Source: an uncultured Nitrosomonadaceae bacterium
Lineage (GTDB): Bacteria; Chloroflexota; Anaerolineae; Anaerolineales; UBA11858
Reading direction: 5' to 3'
NCBI GenBank assembly: GCA_964195965.1
Contig: CAXMRF010000003.1
Location: forward strand, 121 to 64,120
DNA length: 64,000 bases
Position 1 is the first letter of the stretch; each line of letters starts with the position of its first letter. This document shows, piece by piece, positions 4,815 to 19,784 of this stretch. Made by a program: the position numbers and the translations under genes. The notes below the pieces were generated by a model. It worked only from the letters and a program-made list of their open reading frames with translations. It did no database searches and was not told where the DNA came from.

Positions 4815-6128
4815 ATGGCCATTCGAACATTAATTATGGGCGCCGCCGGGCGCGATTTTCATAATTTTAACGTTTTCTTCAGAGAAAACAAAGATTATGA
4901 AGTGGTTGCTTTTACAGCCACGCAGATTCCCAATATTGAAGATCGGAAATATCCGGCAGCGCTTTCTGGTGAGAACTATCCTGAAGGCATTCCTATTTAT
5001 CCTGAATCCGAGTTAATCCCTCTGATTAATAAACATCAGGTTGAACAGGTGATCTTTGCCTACAGTGATGTTACTCATGAATATGTAATGCATAAAGCTT
5101 CTGAAGTGCTGGCAGCTGGAGCGGATTTCAGGTTAATGGGATTAAATACCACCCAGGTGAAATCCACAAAACCAGTGGTTTCTGTCTGCGCAGTCCGGAC
5201 TGGCAGTGGAAAAAGCCAAACCACTCGACGTGTGGCCGAAATCCTCAAGGGTTTTGGGAAAAAAGTAGCAGTGATCCGACACCCCATGCCGTATGGCGAT
5301 TTGGCCCAACAAGCGGTTCAGCGATTTGGTGAACTGTCAGACCTCGATAAACACGAATGCACCATTGAAGAACGGGAAGAATACGAACCCCATATTGTCC
5401 AGGATATACTTGTTTTTGCAGGTGTAGATTATGAAGCAATTCTCCGGGAAGCCGAGAAAGAAGCTGATGTCATTCTCTGGGACGGCGGTAATAATGACCT
5501 GTCCTTTTACAAATCAGATTTTCAAATCGTCGTGGCTGATCCGCTTCGTCCTGGCCATGAAACATCCTATCATCCGGGAGAGGCAAATGCCCGGACAGCG
5601 GATGTATTTGTGATTAATAAAGTTGACTCAGCCAATTCGGAAGACGTGCTCTATTTGCACGATTCTCTCCGGAAATTGGCTCCCGATGCGATTATCCTGG
5701 AAGGCGCTTCACCGCTCTTCGTTGAGGATCCCTCCCAAATTAAAGGGAAACGTGTATTGGTGGTGGAAGATGGCCCCACACTGACTCATGGTGGCATGGC
5801 TTACGGCGCTGGCTGGGTTGCTGCCAGGAGATTTGGCGCAGCAGAGATCGTTGATCCACGGCCATTTGCTGTGGGTACCATTCTGGCAACTTATCAGAAA
5901 TATCCCACCACTGGCGATGTGCTGCCTGCTATGGGTTATGGTGACGCGCAAATTAAAGAATTGGAACAAACGATTAATAACGCCGAGGTGGACCTGGTCA
6001 TTATTGGCACCCCGATTGATCTGTCCCGGTTGATGAAGATCAATAAACCCACCCAGCGGGTTCGTTATGAACTGCAAATTATCGGCCAGCCTACTCTTGA
6101 GGATTTGCTGAAAGAAAAATTCTCATAA
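4815..6128 (+). CDS. COG2403-type P-loop protein (annotated in databases as GTPase / cyclic 2,3-diphosphoglycerate synthetase-like)
   Basis: 437 aa. N-terminal LIMGAAGRDFHNFNVFF and Walker-A-like VRTGSGKSQTT, as I remember for this family. AGGAG RBS 8 nt upstream of the ATG. Confidence 0.6.
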   Translation: MAIRTLIMGAAGRDFHNFNVFFRENKDYEVVAFTATQIPNIEDRKYPAALSGENYPEGIPIYPESELIPLINKHQVEQVIFAYSDVTHEYVMHKASEVLAAGADFRLMGLNTTQVKSTKPVVSVCAVRTGSGKSQTTRRVAEILKGFGKKVAVIRHPMPYGDLAQQAVQRFGELSDLDKHECTIEEREEYEPHIVQDILVFAGVDYEAILREAEKEADVILWDGGNNDLSFYKSDFQIVVADPLRPGHETSYHPGEANARTADVFVINKVDSANSEDVLYLHDSLRKLAPDAIILEGASPLFVEDPSQIKGKRVLVVEDGPTLTHGGMAYGAGWVAARRFGAAEIVDPRPFAVGTILATYQKYPTTGDVLPAMGYGDAQIKELEQTINNAEVDLVIIGTPIDLSRLMKINKPTQRVRYELQIIGQPTLEDLLKEKFS

Positions 6129-6164
6129 GTTAAAACAAGTCAGGTAAAATAAGAACAATCCCAG

Positions 6165-10692: not shown

Positions 10693-11502
10693 TTATTTTT
10701 TCTGGAGCAGCTTCTGTAATTCTGCCAGGTCTACTCGTGAAGTAAGATCAAGGCTGAGAGGGGTAACTGCTACAACCTGCTCATTAACTACCGCGTGGGT
10801 ATCTGTCCCGGGCGGCGATTGATCCCAATCCGATGCAATCTTATAACCAAAATTATCTAAACCAGGTTCAGAATTTTCGTCCGGGCCGGTGGGTTCGTAA
10901 AACCGCTTGGTGGATAATCGGGTTGTTTGCCAGGGGGTTTCCGGCGTTGCCAGGGCGGGCACTTCCACTTTCAGAATCTGGACATCCGGGGGTAAACTTT
11001 TTTCCAGCAGCTGCCGGGAGAAGTGCTTTGTAAAATGCCCGGCGGTGGAGAAGTTAATTTCTTTTGAATAAGAGGTATGATATTTTGTTTCTGTTTCCAG
11101 GGAAATTGCCAGGGCGGGGATCCCGGCCGCAGCGCCTTCCAGGGCAGCTCCAACTGTACCGGAGATAGTCACCCCGGTGCCAACATTCAACCCGTAGTTG
11201 ATGCCAGAGACAATTAAATCGGGTTGACCGGGAATCAATGCAAAGATGCCATAAAGAACAGCCATTGCGGGTGTGCCTCCCAGGGCATGAACAGTCCATT
11301 CTTTCCCGTTCACCACCAGGGTTTCCTTATCTACTTGACCGTCAGCAGTGCTGGGAAAGCTGCGCCCGGTGCCGGATGATTGTTCCCGGGGAGCAATCAC
11401 AGTAACAAAACCCAGTTCATCCAGGGCTTCGGCTGCTGCCCATAAACCGGGACTTTGAATGCCATCGTCATTTGTCAGTAGAATTTGAGGTTCTGATTTC
11501 AT
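10693..11502 (-). CDS. surE: 5'/3'-nucleotidase SurE
   Basis: 269 aa. ILLTNDDGIQSPGL N-terminal signature and GINYGLNVG motif. Confidence 0.9.
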   Translation of the reverse strand: MKSEPQILLTNDDGIQSPGLWAAAEALDELGFVTVIAPREQSSGTGRSFPSTADGQVDKETLVVNGKEWTVHALGGTPAMAVLYGIFALIPGQPDLIVSGINYGLNVGTGVTISGTVGAALEGAAAGIPALAISLETETKYHTSYSKEINFSTAGHFTKHFSRQLLEKSLPPDVQILKVEVPALATPETPWQTTRLSTKRFYEPTGPDENSEPGLDNFGYKIASDWDQSPPGTDTHAVVNEQVVAVTPLSLDLTSRVDLAELQKLLQKK

Positions 11503-11549: not shown

Positions 11550-11553
11550 GAGG

Positions 11554-11626
11554 CACCCTCGGCGTGATTCGAACACGCGACCCCTTACTCCGCAAGCAAG
11601 TGCTCTATCCACTGAGCTACGAGGGC
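11554..11626 (-). tRNA. tRNA-Arg (anticodon read as GCG)
   Basis: The reverse complement GCCCTCG-TA-GCTCAGTGGATAGAGC-A-CTTGC-TTGCGGA-GTAAG-GGGTC-GCGTG-TTCGAAT-CACGC-CGAGGGT-G folds as a 73-nt cloverleaf. The GTAGCTCAGTGGATAGAGC D-arm is Arg-like. G1:U72 wobble. CCA not encoded. Confidence 0.8.
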
Positions 11627-11635
11627 ATATTACTA

Positions 11636-11728
11636 TGGCGGGGAGGGTGGGATTCGAACCCACGGTCGAGCTTTAAACCCGACAACCGCTTAGCAGGCGG
11701 CCCCAATCAGCCACTCTGGCACCTCCCC
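11636..11728 (-). tRNA. tRNA-Ser (GCT)
   Basis: GGGGAGG-TG-CCAGAGTGGCTGATTGG-G-GCCGC-CTGCTAA-GCGGT, then a long variable arm, then GTGGG-TTCGAAT-CCCAC-CCTCCCC-G-CCA. 93 nt; CCA encoded. Confidence 0.9.
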
Positions 11729-11743
11729 GGGGAGATATGTGAA

Positions 11744-11832
<89 letters not shown>

Positions 11833-12013: not shown

Positions 12014-13333
12014 ATGTTTGAGCAACTAACCAATCGCCTGGATGAAATATTCCATTCTCTGCGCCGTCGGGGAAAACTTTCAGAAAATGACGTTGATATC
12101 GCCATGCGGGAAATCCGCCTGGCACTGCTGGAAGCCGATGTCCATTATGGCGTCGTCCGGGAATTTGTTTCCCGGGTAAAAGAGCGAGCGGTTGGGCAGG
12201 AGGTTTCCAAAGCAATCAATCCTGGACAGCAGGTAGTGAAAATTGTCCATGAGGAATTGATTGAAACCCTGGGAGAACCAGCAACTCTCAAAAAATCACC
12301 AGACTCCCCCTTGGTGATTTTACTGGCTGGTTTACAAGGTTCTGGAAAAACCACCGCGGCCGGAAAACTTGGTCGACTCTTAAAGAAGCGTGGAGAACAG
12401 GTATTGCTGGTTGCAGCCGATCCCTACCGGCCGGCAGCCGTGGATCAACTGCAAACATTGGGTAAAGAATTAACAATCCCGGTTTTTGCAGATCCAACTT
12501 TAAAACCGCCCCAACTGGCGAAAAAAGCTCTTCAAGAGGCTGTCCGTTTAAACAGCACCGTAATAATTTTGGACACGGCTGGACGGTCCCAGATTGATGA
12601 AAGCTTAATGGAAGAGCTTGGCGCTGTGCAAATGGCTGCCAAGCCGGATGAAATCCTGCTGGTTGTGGACGCAATGACAGGTCAGGAAGCGGTTAATATT
12701 GCCGAGGGATTTCGTGATGCCGTCCCTATTACTGGCTTGATCATGAGTAAAATGGACGGGGATGCCCGTGGTGGCTCCGCCATTTCGATCCGTTCAGTGA
12801 TTGGTGTGCCAATCAAGTTTCTGGGAACCGGTGAAAGCCTGGATGCCCTGGAAACGTATGACCCCTCTCGATTGGCGTCCAGGATCCTGGGAATGGGAGA
12901 TGTGATCGGTTTAATTGAACGAGCAGAAGAAACCTTTGATCTGGAAACTGCTCAGCAACAGACCGAACGCTTATTATCCGGAGAATTTACTCTGGAGGAT
13001 TTTTCCCAACAGATTTCTCAGGTCATGAAAATGGGATCAATTGGCAAATTGATGGGTATGCTTCCGGGAGAATTTGGTAAAATGTCTCAATCCATTGATC
13101 CTCAGGTAGCTGAGAAGCAGGTTCTCACCAGCCAGGCAATTATTTACTCGATGACGGCTGCAGAAAGACAGAACCCGAAAATCCTCAATGCCAGCCGGAG
13201 GAAACGCATCGCAGCCGGGTCCGGTACCCAGGTTTATAATGTAAATCAATTGGTAAAACAGTACCGGGATGCAAAAAGGATGTTCAAAGAGCTTAAGAAA
13301 TCAGGGTTAGGTAACCTTCCTCGATTTTCTTAA
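12014..13333 (+). CDS. ffh: signal recognition particle protein Ffh
   Basis: 439 aa. GLQGSGKTTAAGKL P-loop, DTAGR, SKMDGDARGG, and a Met-rich M domain. Confidence 0.95.
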   Translation: MFEQLTNRLDEIFHSLRRRGKLSENDVDIAMREIRLALLEADVHYGVVREFVSRVKERAVGQEVSKAINPGQQVVKIVHEELIETLGEPATLKKSPDSPLVILLAGLQGSGKTTAAGKLGRLLKKRGEQVLLVAADPYRPAAVDQLQTLGKELTIPVFADPTLKPPQLAKKALQEAVRLNSTVIILDTAGRSQIDESLMEELGAVQMAAKPDEILLVVDAMTGQEAVNIAEGFRDAVPITGLIMSKMDGDARGGSAISIRSVIGVPIKFLGTGESLDALETYDPSRLASRILGMGDVIGLIERAEETFDLETAQQQTERLLSGEFTLEDFSQQISQVMKMGSIGKLMGMLPGEFGKMSQSIDPQVAEKQVLTSQAIIYSMTAAERQNPKILNASRRKRIAAGSGTQVYNVNQLVKQYRDAKRMFKELKKSGLGNLPRFS

Positions 13334-13419
13334 CAAGTTAAGTTATGGTGTATAATAGTCTCCGCTGTGGGTTTGCCCCAGCAGAATGATGCAGGAGAAA
13401 AAATTAAGGAGTACAAGTT

Positions 13420-14178
13420 ATGGTTCGAATTAGATTACGCCGTGCTGGAGGAAAAGGACAGCCCACTCATCGTATTGTGGCTGCTCATAGAGAAAGCCCC
13501 CGTGATGGCAGATTCATAGAGATACTGGGTGATTATAATCCCAGGACTGAACCCGCCACGATCCGGGTAAAAGATGATCGTGTGTTTTACTGGCTGAGCG
13601 TTGGCGCGCAGCCATCCGATTCCGTGCTGCAGATTTTCCGCACCATCGGTTTAATGGAACGGTATCAGCGATTTAAAGATGGCGAAGATCTGGAAACCCT
13701 GGTTGCTGAAGGGAAGCAAGTTGAGCTGGATCGCAATGTTGATCCACGGACTCGACGGGATGACCTGATCAAGGCATCCAAACCTAAGAAAGTTGAGGAA
13801 CCGGTAGTAGAGGAAACTCCTGAAGCTGAAACCGAGGAAGCAGAAGAACCCGTTGTGGAAGAATCTGCTGCTGAAGTTGTAGAGCCAGAGGTTGAGCCAG
13901 AGGTTGAGCCAGAGGTTGAGCCAGAGGTTGAGCCAGAACCTGAGCCAGAACCTGAGCCAGAACCCGAGCCAGAGCCTGAGCCAGAACCCGAGCCAGAGCC
14001 TGAGCCAGACCTGGACAAAAAAGAAGAGCCAGAGCCAGAAACGGAAGCAGAGATCAAAATTACCGCTGCAGCCAAGAAATTGGCCGAAGACGCAGGTATT
14101 GATATCGCTGCTATAAAAGGCACTGGTAAAGACGGCGCGATCTTAAAATCTGATATCACCAAGTTAATCAAAGATTAA
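13420..14178 (+). CDS. rpsP: 30S ribosomal protein S16 with C-terminal acidic (PE)n linker and peripheral-subunit-binding-like domain
   Basis: Residues 1-~85, [22 protein letters not shown]...DYNP...[10 protein letters not shown], are S16. Residues ~125-205 are E/P/V-rich repeats. The last ~40 aa, [37 protein letters not shown], match the E3_binding/PSBD pattern of 2-oxoacid dehydrogenase E2 chains. Confidence 0.9.
13882..14013 (+). repeat. in-frame 12-bp tandem repeat (11 units), coding for EPEV/EPEP
   Basis: gagccagaggtt x4, then gagccagaacct / gagccagaaccc / gagccagagcct variants x7. Read directly. Confidence 0.95.
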
Positions 14179-14228: not shown

Positions 14229-14465
14229 TTGATTGATTTAATCACCTATATTGCGCGTTCACTTGTTGAGGATCCCACGCAAGTTAAAGTGACCCACCAG
14301 CGAGGCCGGGACAGTATCAATTTCCAATTAGAAGTGGCCCAGGAAGATATGGGTCGGGTTATTGGTAAAAATGGCCGGGTAGCTAATGCTATCCGTACTC
14401 TATTGAATGTGCCAGCCTCCAGTATCGGCAAAAAAGTTAATCTGGATATTGTTGAACCACGATGA
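14229..14465 (+). CDS. KH-domain RNA-binding protein (YlqC/UPF0109 family)
   Basis: 78 aa. MGRVIGKNGRVANAIRTLL is a KH GxxG motif. It holds the conserved position between rpsP and rimM. TTG start after GGAGGA. Confidence 0.85.
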   Translation: MIDLITYIARSLVEDPTQVKVTHQRGRDSINFQLEVAQEDMGRVIGKNGRVANAIRTLLNVPASSIGKKVNLDIVEPR

Positions 14466-15019
14466 AATCTGATCAGAATGAAAATACCAGCACAGGTTCG
14501 TCCCACGTGGAGGAACCTGTGTTTGTTATTATAGGGAAGTTTAGACGTCCCCACGGAATTCGGGGGGAAATTCGAATGACTGTTTTAGCAGATTTCCCGG
14601 ATTTGATTTCACCCGGAAAAACCATCTTTACCGGTGACCAACACCAGGCTTATACCATCACTGGTATTCGCTGGCATGGTGCAGATATGCTGGTATCTCT
14701 GAAAGAATTACCGGATCGTACTGCTGTAGAAATATTCCGGAACATTATGGTATATATGAAGAGCAAGGACATGCCGGAGTTGCCAGAAGGGGAGTTTTAT
14801 ACTCACCAGCTAGTGGGTCTGGAAGTCATCACAGATCAGGGGGAAAATCTGGGCAGACTCAAAGAGATCATTATTACCGGTGCAAATGACGTGTATTTGG
14901 TGGAATCACCCACTGGCAAAGAAGTTTTACTGCCCGCGATTGATGATGTGGTGCTGGACATTAATTATGAAGATAGCATCATGCTGGTTCACATCATATC
15001 GGGATTATTAGATTACTAG
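14462..15019 (+). CDS. rimM: 16S rRNA processing protein RimM
   Basis: 185 aa. IGKFRRPHGIRGEIRM and a PRC-barrel C-terminus. 4-bp overlap with the KH gene. trmD and rplS do not follow. Confidence 0.88.
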   Translation: MKSDQNENTSTGSSHVEEPVFVIIGKFRRPHGIRGEIRMTVLADFPDLISPGKTIFTGDQHQAYTITGIRWHGADMLVSLKELPDRTAVEIFRNIMVYMKSKDMPELPEGEFYTHQLVGLEVITDQGENLGRLKEIIITGANDVYLVESPTGKEVLLPAIDDVVLDINYEDSIMLVHIISGLLDY

Positions 15020-17465: not shown

Positions 17466-19784
17466 TTGAAGGCTTATTGTGTAAAGTGTAAGGAAAAACG
17501 TGAAATGGGTTCGCCCGAACCTGTTTTTACCAAGACGGGGACACCAGCTACCAGGGGTGTTTGTCCGGTTTGTGAGACAAAAATGTTCCGGATGGGCAAG
17601 ACTGAGGCTCATGAAGGGCTTACTCCGCCGGAAAATACAAAACGGAAAGCTAAAGAGCCAAAACCCCGCAGTGGAAAATTAGTGATTGTGGAATCTCCAG
17701 CCAAAGCCCGTACAATTGGGCGTTACCTGGGCAAAGACTATAAAGTAGTTGCTTCTGTTGGTCATGTGCGGGATTTGCTTAGATCCAAATTGTCTGTCGA
17801 TGTTGAAAATAATTTTGAACCAAGCTATCGAGTACCTAATGATAAACGAGAGATCGTGAAAGAAATTAAAAAATTAGGCGCTGAAGCTGAAGAAATTTTT
17901 CTGGCAACAGATCTTGACAGAGAAGGCGAGGCCATTGCCTGGCACTTAATGGAATCGGCAGAATTGGAACCGGAACTGACCAAAAGGGTTGTTTTCCATG
18001 AGATCACCCGGGAGGCTATTGAAGCAGCTTTTGCCAAGCCGGCGGTGTTAAATATGGATCTGGTGGATGCCCAGCAGGGAAGAAGGGTTGTGGATCGCCT
18101 GGTGGGATTCCAAATCAGCCCTATCTTATGGGAGAAAGTTCGGGGTGGTTTAACAGCGGGACGAGTGCAGTCTATATCATTAAAATTGATTGTAGATCGG
18201 GAAAGAGAAATTGAAGCATTTAACCCTGTAGAATATTGGTCCGTCGCTGCGAAATTAAGCCCGGATGATGGTGTTGAGAGTAATACTTACCAGGCCAATC
18301 TAACGCATATTGATGGAAAGAAATTGCAAGTGAGTTCAAAAATTGAACTGGATCCAATTCTCTCAGATCTTGAAAAAGCTCATTATGAAGTCAGAAAAAT
18401 TCGCAAAGGAACCAGAGAACGAAATCCTTACCCTCCATTTATAACCAGCACAATGCAGCAGGATGCTTCCAGGCAGCTTAATTTTTCGGCTAAGAAAACT
18501 ATGGCTGTGGCGCAGCAGCTTTATCAGGGTATTGATGTCGGAAATGGTGGTGAAACGGGATTGATTACCTATATGCGAACAGATTCTACACATGTTTCCG
18601 AATCTGCCCAAACCGCTGTCCGGGAATTTGTTCAATCCAACTACGGGGATGAATATGTGCCTGACACAATTCCTCACTATAAGACAAAAAGCAAACGAGC
18701 CCAGGAAGCCCATGAAGCTATCCGGCCAACTTCTATAAACCGGACCCCAATATCAATTAAAGGTTTTCTAAAAAACGATCAATATCGTTTGTATAAACTG
18801 ATCTGGGAACGATTTGTTGCCTCTCAGATGACATCAGCTCTGTATGATACGCTTAGCGTACTTGTGGGAGGAGATGGCTCAGCCCATGCCTATGTGTTCC
18901 GCGCTTCTGGATCACGTATCAAATTCCAGGGTTTCTTAAAAGTGTACAACCGTGGCAATGGCCGTGCATCTCAAGCTGAGAAAGATCTCGAAAGTATCCC
19001 GGAAAGTCTGGCAGAAGGACAGATTCAGCGATTAATTCAATTACTGCCTGATCAGCATTTTACAAAACCACCTGCCCGATATTCCGAGGCAACCCTGGTT
19101 AGCACCCTGGAGGAAAATGGCATAGGCCGTCCTTCTACTTATGCACCCATTCTGGGGAAACTGGTTCAGCGGGGCTATGTTGTAAAAGATGCACGACGTA
19201 TGTCGCCAACAGAAACAGGAATAATTGTAAATGATCTGGTTACAGAATATTTTTCGTCAATTGTGAATATTGGATTTACGGCTGATCTGGAAAAGGAATT
19301 GGATCTGGTTGCATCTGGTGCAGAGGACTGGCGGGATACTGTTAAAGAATTTTATGGGCCTTTTTCCGATCAATTAGAATACGCGAAAAGAGAAATGCCA
19401 AAAATCGAGCCGGTATATATCTCGATTGGAAAAGAATGTCCGGAATGTGGCGGTGATCTGGTTCAGCGCTGGGGACGGTATGGGTTGTATGTAGGCTGCA
19501 GTAATAGACCGGAATGCAAACATACGGAACGCTGGATGGAGAAAATTGGTGTAATCTGTCCCCAAGATGGCGGGGAGCTAATCGAAAAGAAAACTAAGAA
19601 GGGAAGATTGTTCTTCGGATGTGAAAACTACCCTGATTGTGATTTTGCCTCTTGGAAAAGACCATTGCCTGAACCATGCCCGAGCTGCGGTGGATTATTG
19701 GTTGTGGCAAACAAAAAACATGCCCAATGTTCTGTCTGTTCTTTGGAATTTCAGCGGGATGAAATTAAAGAGAAAACGGTTTAA
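17466..19784 (+). CDS. topA: DNA topoisomerase I with extra N-terminal zinc ribbon
   Basis: 772 aa. TOPRIM LVIVESPAKARTIGRYLG. Active-site GLITYMRTDS. C-terminal CxxC...C ribbons. N-terminal CVKC...CPVC module of ~45 aa. TTG start 6 nt after GGAGG. Confidence 0.95.
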   Translation: MKAYCVKCKEKREMGSPEPVFTKTGTPATRGVCPVCETKMFRMGKTEAHEGLTPPENTKRKAKEPKPRSGKLVIVESPAKARTIGRYLGKDYKVVASVGHVRDLLRSKLSVDVENNFEPSYRVPNDKREIVKEIKKLGAEAEEIFLATDLDREGEAIAWHLMESAELEPELTKRVVFHEITREAIEAAFAKPAVLNMDLVDAQQGRRVVDRLVGFQISPILWEKVRGGLTAGRVQSISLKLIVDREREIEAFNPVEYWSVAAKLSPDDGVESNTYQANLTHIDGKKLQVSSKIELDPILSDLEKAHYEVRKIRKGTRERNPYPPFITSTMQQDASRQLNFSAKKTMAVAQQLYQGIDVGNGGETGLITYMRTDSTHVSESAQTAVREFVQSNYGDEYVPDTIPHYKTKSKRAQEAHEAIRPTSINRTPISIKGFLKNDQYRLYKLIWERFVASQMTSALYDTLSVLVGGDGSAHAYVFRASGSRIKFQGFLKVYNRGNGRASQAEKDLESIPESLAEGQIQRLIQLLPDQHFTKPPARYSEATLVSTLEENGIGRPSTYAPILGKLVQRGYVVKDARRMSPTETGIIVNDLVTEYFSSIVNIGFTADLEKELDLVASGAEDWRDTVKEFYGPFSDQLEYAKREMPKIEPVYISIGKECPECGGDLVQRWGRYGLYVGCSNRPECKHTERWMEKIGVICPQDGGELIEKKTKKGRLFFGCENYPDCDFASWKRPLPEPCPSCGGLLVVANKKHAQCSVCSLEFQRDEIKEKTV

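Follow-up and report, generated by a model that had tools for sequence, protein, structure and literature searches.

Ribosomal protein bS16 of a group of Anaerolineales carries a predicted peripheral subunit-binding domain on an acidic tether

Introduction

Peripheral subunit-binding domains (PSBDs) sit on the E2 core of 2-oxoacid dehydrogenase complexes and dock the E1 and E3 enzymes, and to our knowledge this docking is the only job known for them. The E2 host is an acyltransferase with lipoyl and catalytic domains, in which the PSBD lies internally behind a flexible linker rich in Pro, Glu and Ala. Other scaffolds also carry PSBDs, namely the E3-binding protein (E3BP) of eukaryotic pyruvate dehydrogenase and the protein 7qjm_A, which has an N-terminal PSBD-like segment, but both are still within or related to 2-oxoacid/acetoin dehydrogenase systems. 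Here we describe a ribosomal host. In a 64,000-nucleotide stretch of DNA (the window; contig CAXMRF010000003.1, positions 121 to 64,120, assembly GCA_964195965.1, placed by GTDB in Chloroflexota; Anaerolineae; Anaerolineales; UBA11858), the rpsP gene for ribosomal protein bS16 encodes a chain that ends in a PSBD-fold module. This tail shares with E2 PSBDs the flexible linker before the module, the GTGKDGxILKxDI signature, the family and the predicted fold. Unlike them, it is C-terminal in its host, and where E2 PSBDs are basic with a conserved Arg after GTGxxG, it is neutral, with A, N, T or G at that position.

Two further groups of proteins are relevant. The bL12 stalk, the eukaryotic and archaeal P1/P2 proteins and the C-terminal tails of SSB combine an anchor, a flexible and often acidic tether and a terminal element that recruits translational GTPases or DNA-repair enzymes. 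The functional logic that we propose for bS16-PSBD would be the same, although these tails are unrelated to it in sequence and fold and are placed on the large subunit or on DNA, whereas the S16 anchor lies in the body of the 30S subunit. The long bS16 proteins of Actinobacteria (M. smegmatis, M. tuberculosis, C. acnes) and Bacteroidota likewise consist of an S16 core and a C-terminal extension that is flexible distally, but they have no PSBD. Where long bS16 proteins have been solved, this extension occupies the solvent side close to uS4 and the mRNA entry and its far end is flexible; that of C. acnes touches uS4 near the mRNA entry (PMC10085706). A full-text literature search found no description of PSBD fusions to S16 or to other ribosomal proteins. 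Thus bS16, PSBDs and acidic linkers are known parts, while their combination, and the relatives on bL21, IF-2 and NusA reported below, are undescribed in the literature searched.

Results

The bS16 chain ends in a predicted PSBD

The rpsP gene is a single open reading frame (ORF) that starts with ATG and encodes 252 amino acids (aa) with no stop and no frame break inside. The protein consists of four parts, an S16 core, a helical extension, an acidic linker and a C-terminal PSBD-fold module (Table 1). An earlier note on this DNA, made from the letters alone, had described an S16 core that continues uninterrupted into a PSBD-like tail, and the reading frame bears this out; the tail sequence that it quoted, and its account of an E/P/V stretch and a (PE)n run, match the ORF exactly. 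An exact look-up of the protein in public assemblies returned no record.

The same note had taken the tail for a PSBD and proposed a scan with PF02817, and this assignment holds. Pfam E3_binding (PF02817) matched aa 217-246 with 40.8 bits (E 2.6e-10; cut-off 23.7), and the isolated 39-aa tail scored 45.2 bits (E 1.1e-11), which is above the curated threshold. NCBIfam equivalog models of E2 matched the tail region only and stayed far under their cut-offs (for example TIGR02927, 36 bits vs 423). Pfam and NCBIfam found S16 and E3_binding domains only, with neither a lipoyl domain nor an E2 catalytic domain (DHRxxDG) in the chain, and no second PSBD was detected within the window. Sequence matches of the tail in the PDB were PSBDs of E2 chains, bar one alpha/beta-hydrolase, 7qjm_A.

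Structure prediction gave the same picture. In the whole-protein AlphaFold model, built on an alignment of 40 homologues, aa 214-252 formed two helices with a predicted local distance difference test score (pLDDT) of ~70-77. Modelled alone with AlphaFold2 (AF2) as a 47-aa construct on 14 tails, the module reached a pLDDT of 83.5, with helices at residues 11-20 and 38-46. The top 34 Foldseek matches of the module in the PDB were all PSBDs of E2 or E3BP chains (template-modelling score, TM, 0.58-0.79; root-mean-square deviation, rmsd, mostly ~1-1.5 Å), among them PSBDs crystallised with E1 (1w85, 9h1n) and with E3 (3rnm, 1ebd, 2eq7). A two-helix PSBD fold is therefore predicted for the S16 tail, and the domain assignment stands because sequence matches and predicted fold agree.

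Table 1 Features of the rpsP region and of related loci. Coordinates without a locus handle are window positions; L and P handles denote related loci and proteins.
Feature	Coordinates	Strand	Evidence and remarks
rpsP, complete coding sequence of the S16-linker-PSBD fusion	13420..14178	+	ORF list, Pfam, NCBIfam; 252 aa plus stop
Shine-Dalgarno-like AAGGAG	13406..13411	+	Read from sequence; 8 nt 5' of the rpsP ATG
bS16 core, aa 1-77	13420..13650	+	PF00886, TIGR00002, AlphaFold model, Foldseek
Conserved helical extension, aa 78-126	13651..13797	+	AlphaFold model, homologue comparison; contains DPRTRRDDL, ends in PKK
Acidic Pro/Glu/Val-rich disordered linker, aa 127-212	13798..14055	+	AlphaFold model, composition; net charge -39
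12-bp tandem DNA repeat GAGCCAGAGCCT, 11 copies	13882..14013	+	Tandem Repeats Finder; encodes the (PE)n run
C-terminal PSBD-fold module, aa 213-252 (40 aa)	14056..14175	+	PF02817, PDB sequence matches, AF2/Foldseek
ffh (SRP54), conserved upstream neighbour	12014..13333	+	ORF; synteny in 24 loci; identity read from sequence, without Pfam scan
KhpA-type KH-domain gene	14229..14465	+	PF13083, 78.2 bits; synteny
rimM	14462..15019	+	PF01782, PF05239, PF24986; synteny
bL21-PSBD loci L023, L025-L035, L037, L038, L040, L041, L043, L044, L046-L048, L050-L057, L060, L063-L065	match at ~6001-6140 in most		
nusA + infB, both with modules, L039	3509-5512 and 5590-8238		
nusA + infB, both with modules, L045	2931-5018 and 5419-8280		
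nusA + infB, both with modules, L068	4276-6174 and 6599-9463		
nusA + infB, both with modules, L049 and L067			
Phasin-like PSBD family: P0121-P0123, P0128, P0129, P0132, P0133, P0139, P0160			Representative-protein search

The fusion is clade-wide and its tail is under purifying selection

Among 5.8 billion proteins searched, the module was found on 65 clusters (90% identity) of Anaerolineales proteins of 235-319 aa. All but one of these clusters (64/65) have both PF00886 and PF02817 on record; the remaining one, P0071, is N-terminally truncated and has PF02817 only. When species genomes of GTDB were scanned with a tail profile, the fusion was found in 24 Anaerolineales/Chloroflexota species. 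The extension, which according to the earlier note would point to misassembly if absent from all relatives, is thus present in S16 of related Chloroflexota. All carriers seen are metagenome-assembled genomes (MAGs). Annotation pipelines label the carriers as plain 'S16', as happens to the bL21 relatives described below with 'L21', and the truncated P0071 is labelled by JGI as 'E2 component'.

Over 66 tails, the final 40 positions hardly vary, with the consensus KIT.AA+KLAEE.GID..xVKGTGKDG-x-ILKSDI.KLIKD. By the Nei-Gojobori method, dN/dS was 0.075 for the tail vs 0.067 for the S16 core plus extension (dS ~1.4), which puts tail and ribosomal core under equally tight constraint. These data bear directly on whether a chimeric join, a frameshift or a mis-called ORF had joined S16 to an unrelated E2 fragment. 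The repeat-rich linker does assemble poorly and is fragile in annotation and assembly: in two related MAGs rpsP is interrupted within the PE repeat, where L014 (5842-6129) has a frame break and L021 (5614-6132) an N-run. Against such an artefact, more than 60 independent protein clusters and 24 species genomes, which come from many projects, have this fusion with frame and synteny unchanged. Moreover, selection on the tail is purifying, and no lipoyl or catalytic E2 domain lies nearby. An artefact is thereby effectively refuted, its probability being negligible, and S16-PSBD is a genuine, clade-wide domain fusion.

A viral origin of the S16-type module was also considered and set aside: the tail profile retrieved no relative from IMG/VR, and matches to PHROGs were no more than weak hints for some of the small PSBD proteins.

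Related modules occur on bL21, IF-2 and NusA of Gemmatimonadota

Outside S16, the tail had its nearest relatives in GTDB genomes among Gemmatimonadota proteins (55-67% identity) and not among E2 chains. According to Pfam, bL21 of this phylum carries one to three E3_binding modules at its C-terminus and NusA one, also C-terminal; the N-terminal region of IF-2 contains one or two, placed between acidic linkers (two in the Pfam check). The linkers that join module and host are acidic in bL21, IF-2 and NusA, those of bL21 being either acidic or rich in Ala, Pro and Lys. In three Gemmatimonadota loci, adjacent nusA and infB genes both carry modules. With one bL21-PSBD as query, 839 matches were obtained at E<=1e-10, and the best 120 relatives all had PF00829 and PF02817. 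Databases name these carriers only as L21, IF-2 or NusA.

The S16-tail profile, run against 1.84 billion representative proteins, yielded 4667 matches. Per-domain scores were 87-91 bits for S16 tails, 58-73 bits for small uncharacterised proteins, up to 70.8 bits for bL21 modules, up to 60 bits for IF-2 modules and 52.8 bits for the NusA module; the best E2 module among the top matches reached 53.3 bits, and other E2 modules ~45 bits or less. In sequence, the non-E2 modules thus lie closer to one another than to E2 PSBDs, a likeness that may owe something to convergence in acidic composition. The Gemmatimonadota modules share with the S16 tail the acidic linkers and the attachment to core translation or transcription proteins, and differ from it in their hosts and phylum, in their frequent occurrence as two or three tandem copies, in keeping the Arg after GTGxxG and in being more acidic (net charge -3 to -7, and -5 to -10 for the modules of IF-2 and NusA). 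Taken together, core proteins of translation and transcription have repeatedly acquired acidically tethered PSBD modules, and this in at least two phyla.

Since bS16, bL21, IF-2 and NusA are all RNA-associated, and a fold of two helices with an extended loop is superficially similar to SAP, HeH or Rho_N motifs, the module might act on rRNA, mRNA or DNA as a nucleic-acid-binding element of this type. We consider this very improbable: the S16-PSBD protein had no Pfam match to SAP, HeH or Rho_N at E<=1, the structural matches were exclusively PSBDs, and a neutral to strongly acidic module on a polyanionic linker would be unfavourable for such binding.

The searches also brought up PSBDs on other hosts. 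A Promineifilaceae Wzz-GGDEF membrane protein has a C-terminal PSBD behind an acidic linker (L042, 2328-3851; Pfam), and a Ser/Thr protein-kinase-like protein (P0130) has three C-terminal modules. A further family combines a weakly phasin-like N-terminal domain (Phasin_2, E 0.003) with three to four PSBD modules separated by (AGQA)n-type repeats. Small proteins of ~100-250 aa (P0194, L081 37-567; P0252, L082 17-511; P0212, P0254, P0264, P0126 and P0259) end in one or two near-S16-type PSBDs, several of them without the Arg after GTGxxG. P0194 matches phrog_419 and the gene beside P0252 matches phrog_3999, both weak hints from short contigs; some small PSBD proteins may be phage-encoded.

The linker keeps its acidic composition while its sequence varies

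The linker, which includes (VEPE)5(PE)14, had a pLDDT below 50 across aa 126-211 in the AlphaFold model. In 63 homologues it was 69-153 aa long, with 45% D/E and 2% K/R and a net charge of -26 to -68; sequence and length are hypervariable while the acidic composition persists. Long 'ORFs' in other frames (window 13665-14171, minus strand, and 13892-14116, plus strand), with SGS- and LSQ-rich translations, overlie the 12-bp tandem repeat; they are by-products of the repeat and not genes.

Five sister S16 proteins of Anaerolineales (P0072, P0079, P0080, P0087 and P0096) have the helical extension and a poly-acidic tail of 60-120 aa, with for example DEEDEDEEDDEESDVD repeats, and no PSBD. The acidic arm may therefore function by itself; it may be older than the PSBD, or the PSBD may have been lost from it. 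A partner-less polyanionic arm could act as an entropic bristle, a solubiliser, an RNA mimic or a modulator of contacts between ribosomes or between ribosome and nucleoid, and the PSBD would then be a stable C-terminal cap that might, for example, shield the disordered end from proteolysis. Such an explanation fits the equally long acidic tails of related S16 proteins that lack a PSBD, the retention of linker composition rather than sequence, and the nature of PSBDs, which the titles of PDB entries describe as autonomous, ultrafast-folding mini-domains. On the other hand, capping alone would not require 40 nearly invariant residues at the dN/dS found here, tandem copies in twos or threes in bL21 and IF-2 are unexpected for a cap, and within IF-2 the internal modules have no end to cap. 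We regard a partner-less arm as distinctly unlikely.

The canonical E3/E1 interface is not conserved

In Bacillus stearothermophilus E2, Arg135, Arg139 and Arg156 are residues that we take to be the electrostatic contacts with E3 and E1, and binding of both enzymes in Bacillus is reportedly an electrostatic zipper with acidic enzyme residues. To compare the S16 tails with this interface, 40 distinct tails were aligned on GxD…GTGxxG, and the equivalent positions were read off. The Arg135 position was K/R in 39/40 tails. At the Arg139 position, which is variable in E2, 39/40 tails had Glu and one had Asp. The Arg156 position, the Arg of GTGxxGR(I/V), was A, N, T or G in all 40 tails and never basic, vs R/K in 35/35 Gemmatimonadota modules and in 76/90 E2 modules, the E2 set being biased towards resemblance to the S16 tail. 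Mean net charge was -0.8 for S16 modules vs +0.7 for the E2 modules of this set. As a set, the basic contact residues of Bacillus E2 are thus not conserved in S16 tails. Of the parallel to E2 drawn in the earlier note, family and predicted fold stand, while docking of E3 or E1 is weakened; since the position after GTGxxG is never basic, canonical docking is doubtful, and the module is filed as a PSBD by fold and family and not as an E3/E1-binding domain.

If the S16 PSBD nevertheless bound the dihydrolipoamide dehydrogenase (E3) or a 2-oxoacid dehydrogenase E1 of the organism as in E2, an enzyme of central metabolism would be physically coupled to the 30S subunit. Sequence and predicted fold are those of bona fide PSBDs, and the nearest solved relatives include PSBDs in complex with E1 or E3 (1w85_I, 3rnm_E, 9h1n_A, 1ebd_C). 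The position of Arg135 is still basic in nearly all tails, and 14 of the 90 E2 modules, as well as human E3BP, also have no basic residue at that of Arg156. The other two positions speak against it, as do the nearly neutral charge of a module that sits on so acidic an arm and the strong acidity of the Gemmatimonadota IF-2 and NusA modules. In addition, no gene for E1, E2 or E3 was found in the window or near the fusion in 24 related loci, and no homologue of lipoamide dehydrogenase was detectable in the window. Canonical recruitment is therefore unlikely in our view. A missing Arg and a charge from neutral to acidic speak against the canonical zipper, and a co-evolved E3 or E1 stays compatible with them. 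Given this loss and the near-neutral charge of the S16-type module, a partner is probably bound otherwise than through the canonical arginine interface.

The S16 core is ordinary and its helical extension is shared with sister proteins

Ribosomal_S16 (PF00886) matched aa 8-66 with 73.3 bits (cut-off 27) and the S16 equivalog TIGR00002 scored 88.3 bits (cut-off 45.3). The rRNA-binding core was modelled by AF2 with a pLDDT of ~90-97, and its best Foldseek matches were bS16 chains of solved ribosomes (rmsd ~2 Å). The extension was predicted with high pLDDT as three helices (aa 78-86, 91-106 and 109-119) followed by the basic PKK patch, and it is kept in Anaerolineales S16 both with and without the PSBD.

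Whether aa 78-126 are homologous to the actinobacterial bS16 extension was examined, and this relation was not established. Full-length alignments hint at it: NCBIfam models of 'long S16' aligned over aa 2-149 and 2-161, below their own cut-offs (98 vs 165 and 89 vs 209), the former being PRK14520, the long actinobacterial-type bS16, with 98.3 bits, and bS16 of M. smegmatis aligned to aa 2-128. However, phmmer and profile searches of the PDB with the extension only found no solved bS16 or other homologue, and the structural overlay was poor (rmsd 5-7 Å). Because homology to solved extensions could not be shown, placement of the Anaerolineales extension near uS4 is an analogy only.

Gene neighbourhood

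About 12 kb around each related gene were inspected. The order ffh-rpsP-KH-rimM was found in 24/24 related loci, with dprA next in all but one, and neither trmD nor rplS was found within 6 kb of the fusion in any of them; homologues of TrmD and L19 were likewise undetectable in the 64-kb window. The operon had been noted earlier as truncated, with a KH gene and rimM but without trmD and rplS. This is confirmed, and because the same gene order is shared by all 24 related loci, the truncation is a trait of the lineage.

A scan for promoters and terminators around the operon gave sites no commoner than in shuffled sequence. At this overall level, the ffh-rpsP intergenic region has a perfect TATAAT (13351-13356, plus strand) with TTAACA (13330-13335) upstream at a 15-nt spacer. 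Three tRNA genes (Arg-GCG, Ser-GCT, Ser-TGA; window 11552-11832, minus strand) lie between a SurE-like gene (10693-11502, minus strand) and ffh. Downstream, a topoisomerase I-like ORF (17466-19784, plus strand) has an extra ~70 aa before the usual Toprim start with two CxxC pairs (MKAYCVKCKEK…CPVCETK), a possible zinc ribbon.

Discussion

In this study, bS16 of a group of Anaerolineales was found to end in a module of predicted PSBD fold that is conserved as tightly as the ribosomal core. With moderate confidence we suggest that this tail is a module for docking a protein, tethered flexibly to the 30S subunit, by analogy with stalk proteins and E2 chains. The S16 core would anchor the protein in the body of the 30S subunit, and the polyanionic spacer would serve as a flexible arm, which at 69-153 residues could span tens of nanometres when fully extended. 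The terminal domain would be the plug at which a soluble partner protein docks and so stays close to the ribosome. Judging from other long bS16 proteins, the arm would be located on the solvent side. The modules on bL21, IF-2 and NusA of Gemmatimonadota suggest that the function of such modules is linked to the gene-expression machinery.

Several points weigh against a docking arm. The candidate partner and its binding are both inferred. The conserved GTGKDG and ILKSDI are also fold-determining in ordinary PSBDs, and conservation alone is therefore no proof of a binding surface. The position of the tail on the ribosome is drawn by analogy, and homology of the extension to that of actinobacterial bS16 was not detected by sequence, with the poor overlay reported above. 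Besides, the acidic arm may have a function of its own to which the PSBD is an add-on, and convergence in acidic composition could account for part of the likeness between the modules of S16 and those of Gemmatimonadota.

A PSBD under strong purifying selection on a core 30S protein implies that in some bacteria something is tethered to ribosomes and transcription complexes in a way that is undescribed in the literature searched, an implication to which the related modules on bL21, IF-2 and NusA of a second phylum add weight. More tentatively, and as a possibility rather than an expectation, PSBD modules on acidic tethers may form a general plug-and-socket system that recruits a common hub to ribosomes and transcription complexes; an enzyme of metabolism, for example E3 or E1, might be this hub, or else some other factor. 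For the proposed docking arm of bS16, knowing the partner might bring to light a new factor associated with the ribosome or a connection of metabolism with translation. If the plug-and-socket system exists, it would represent a new ribosome recruitment arm comparable to the L7/L12 stalk or, alternatively, a direct physical link of central metabolism and translation.

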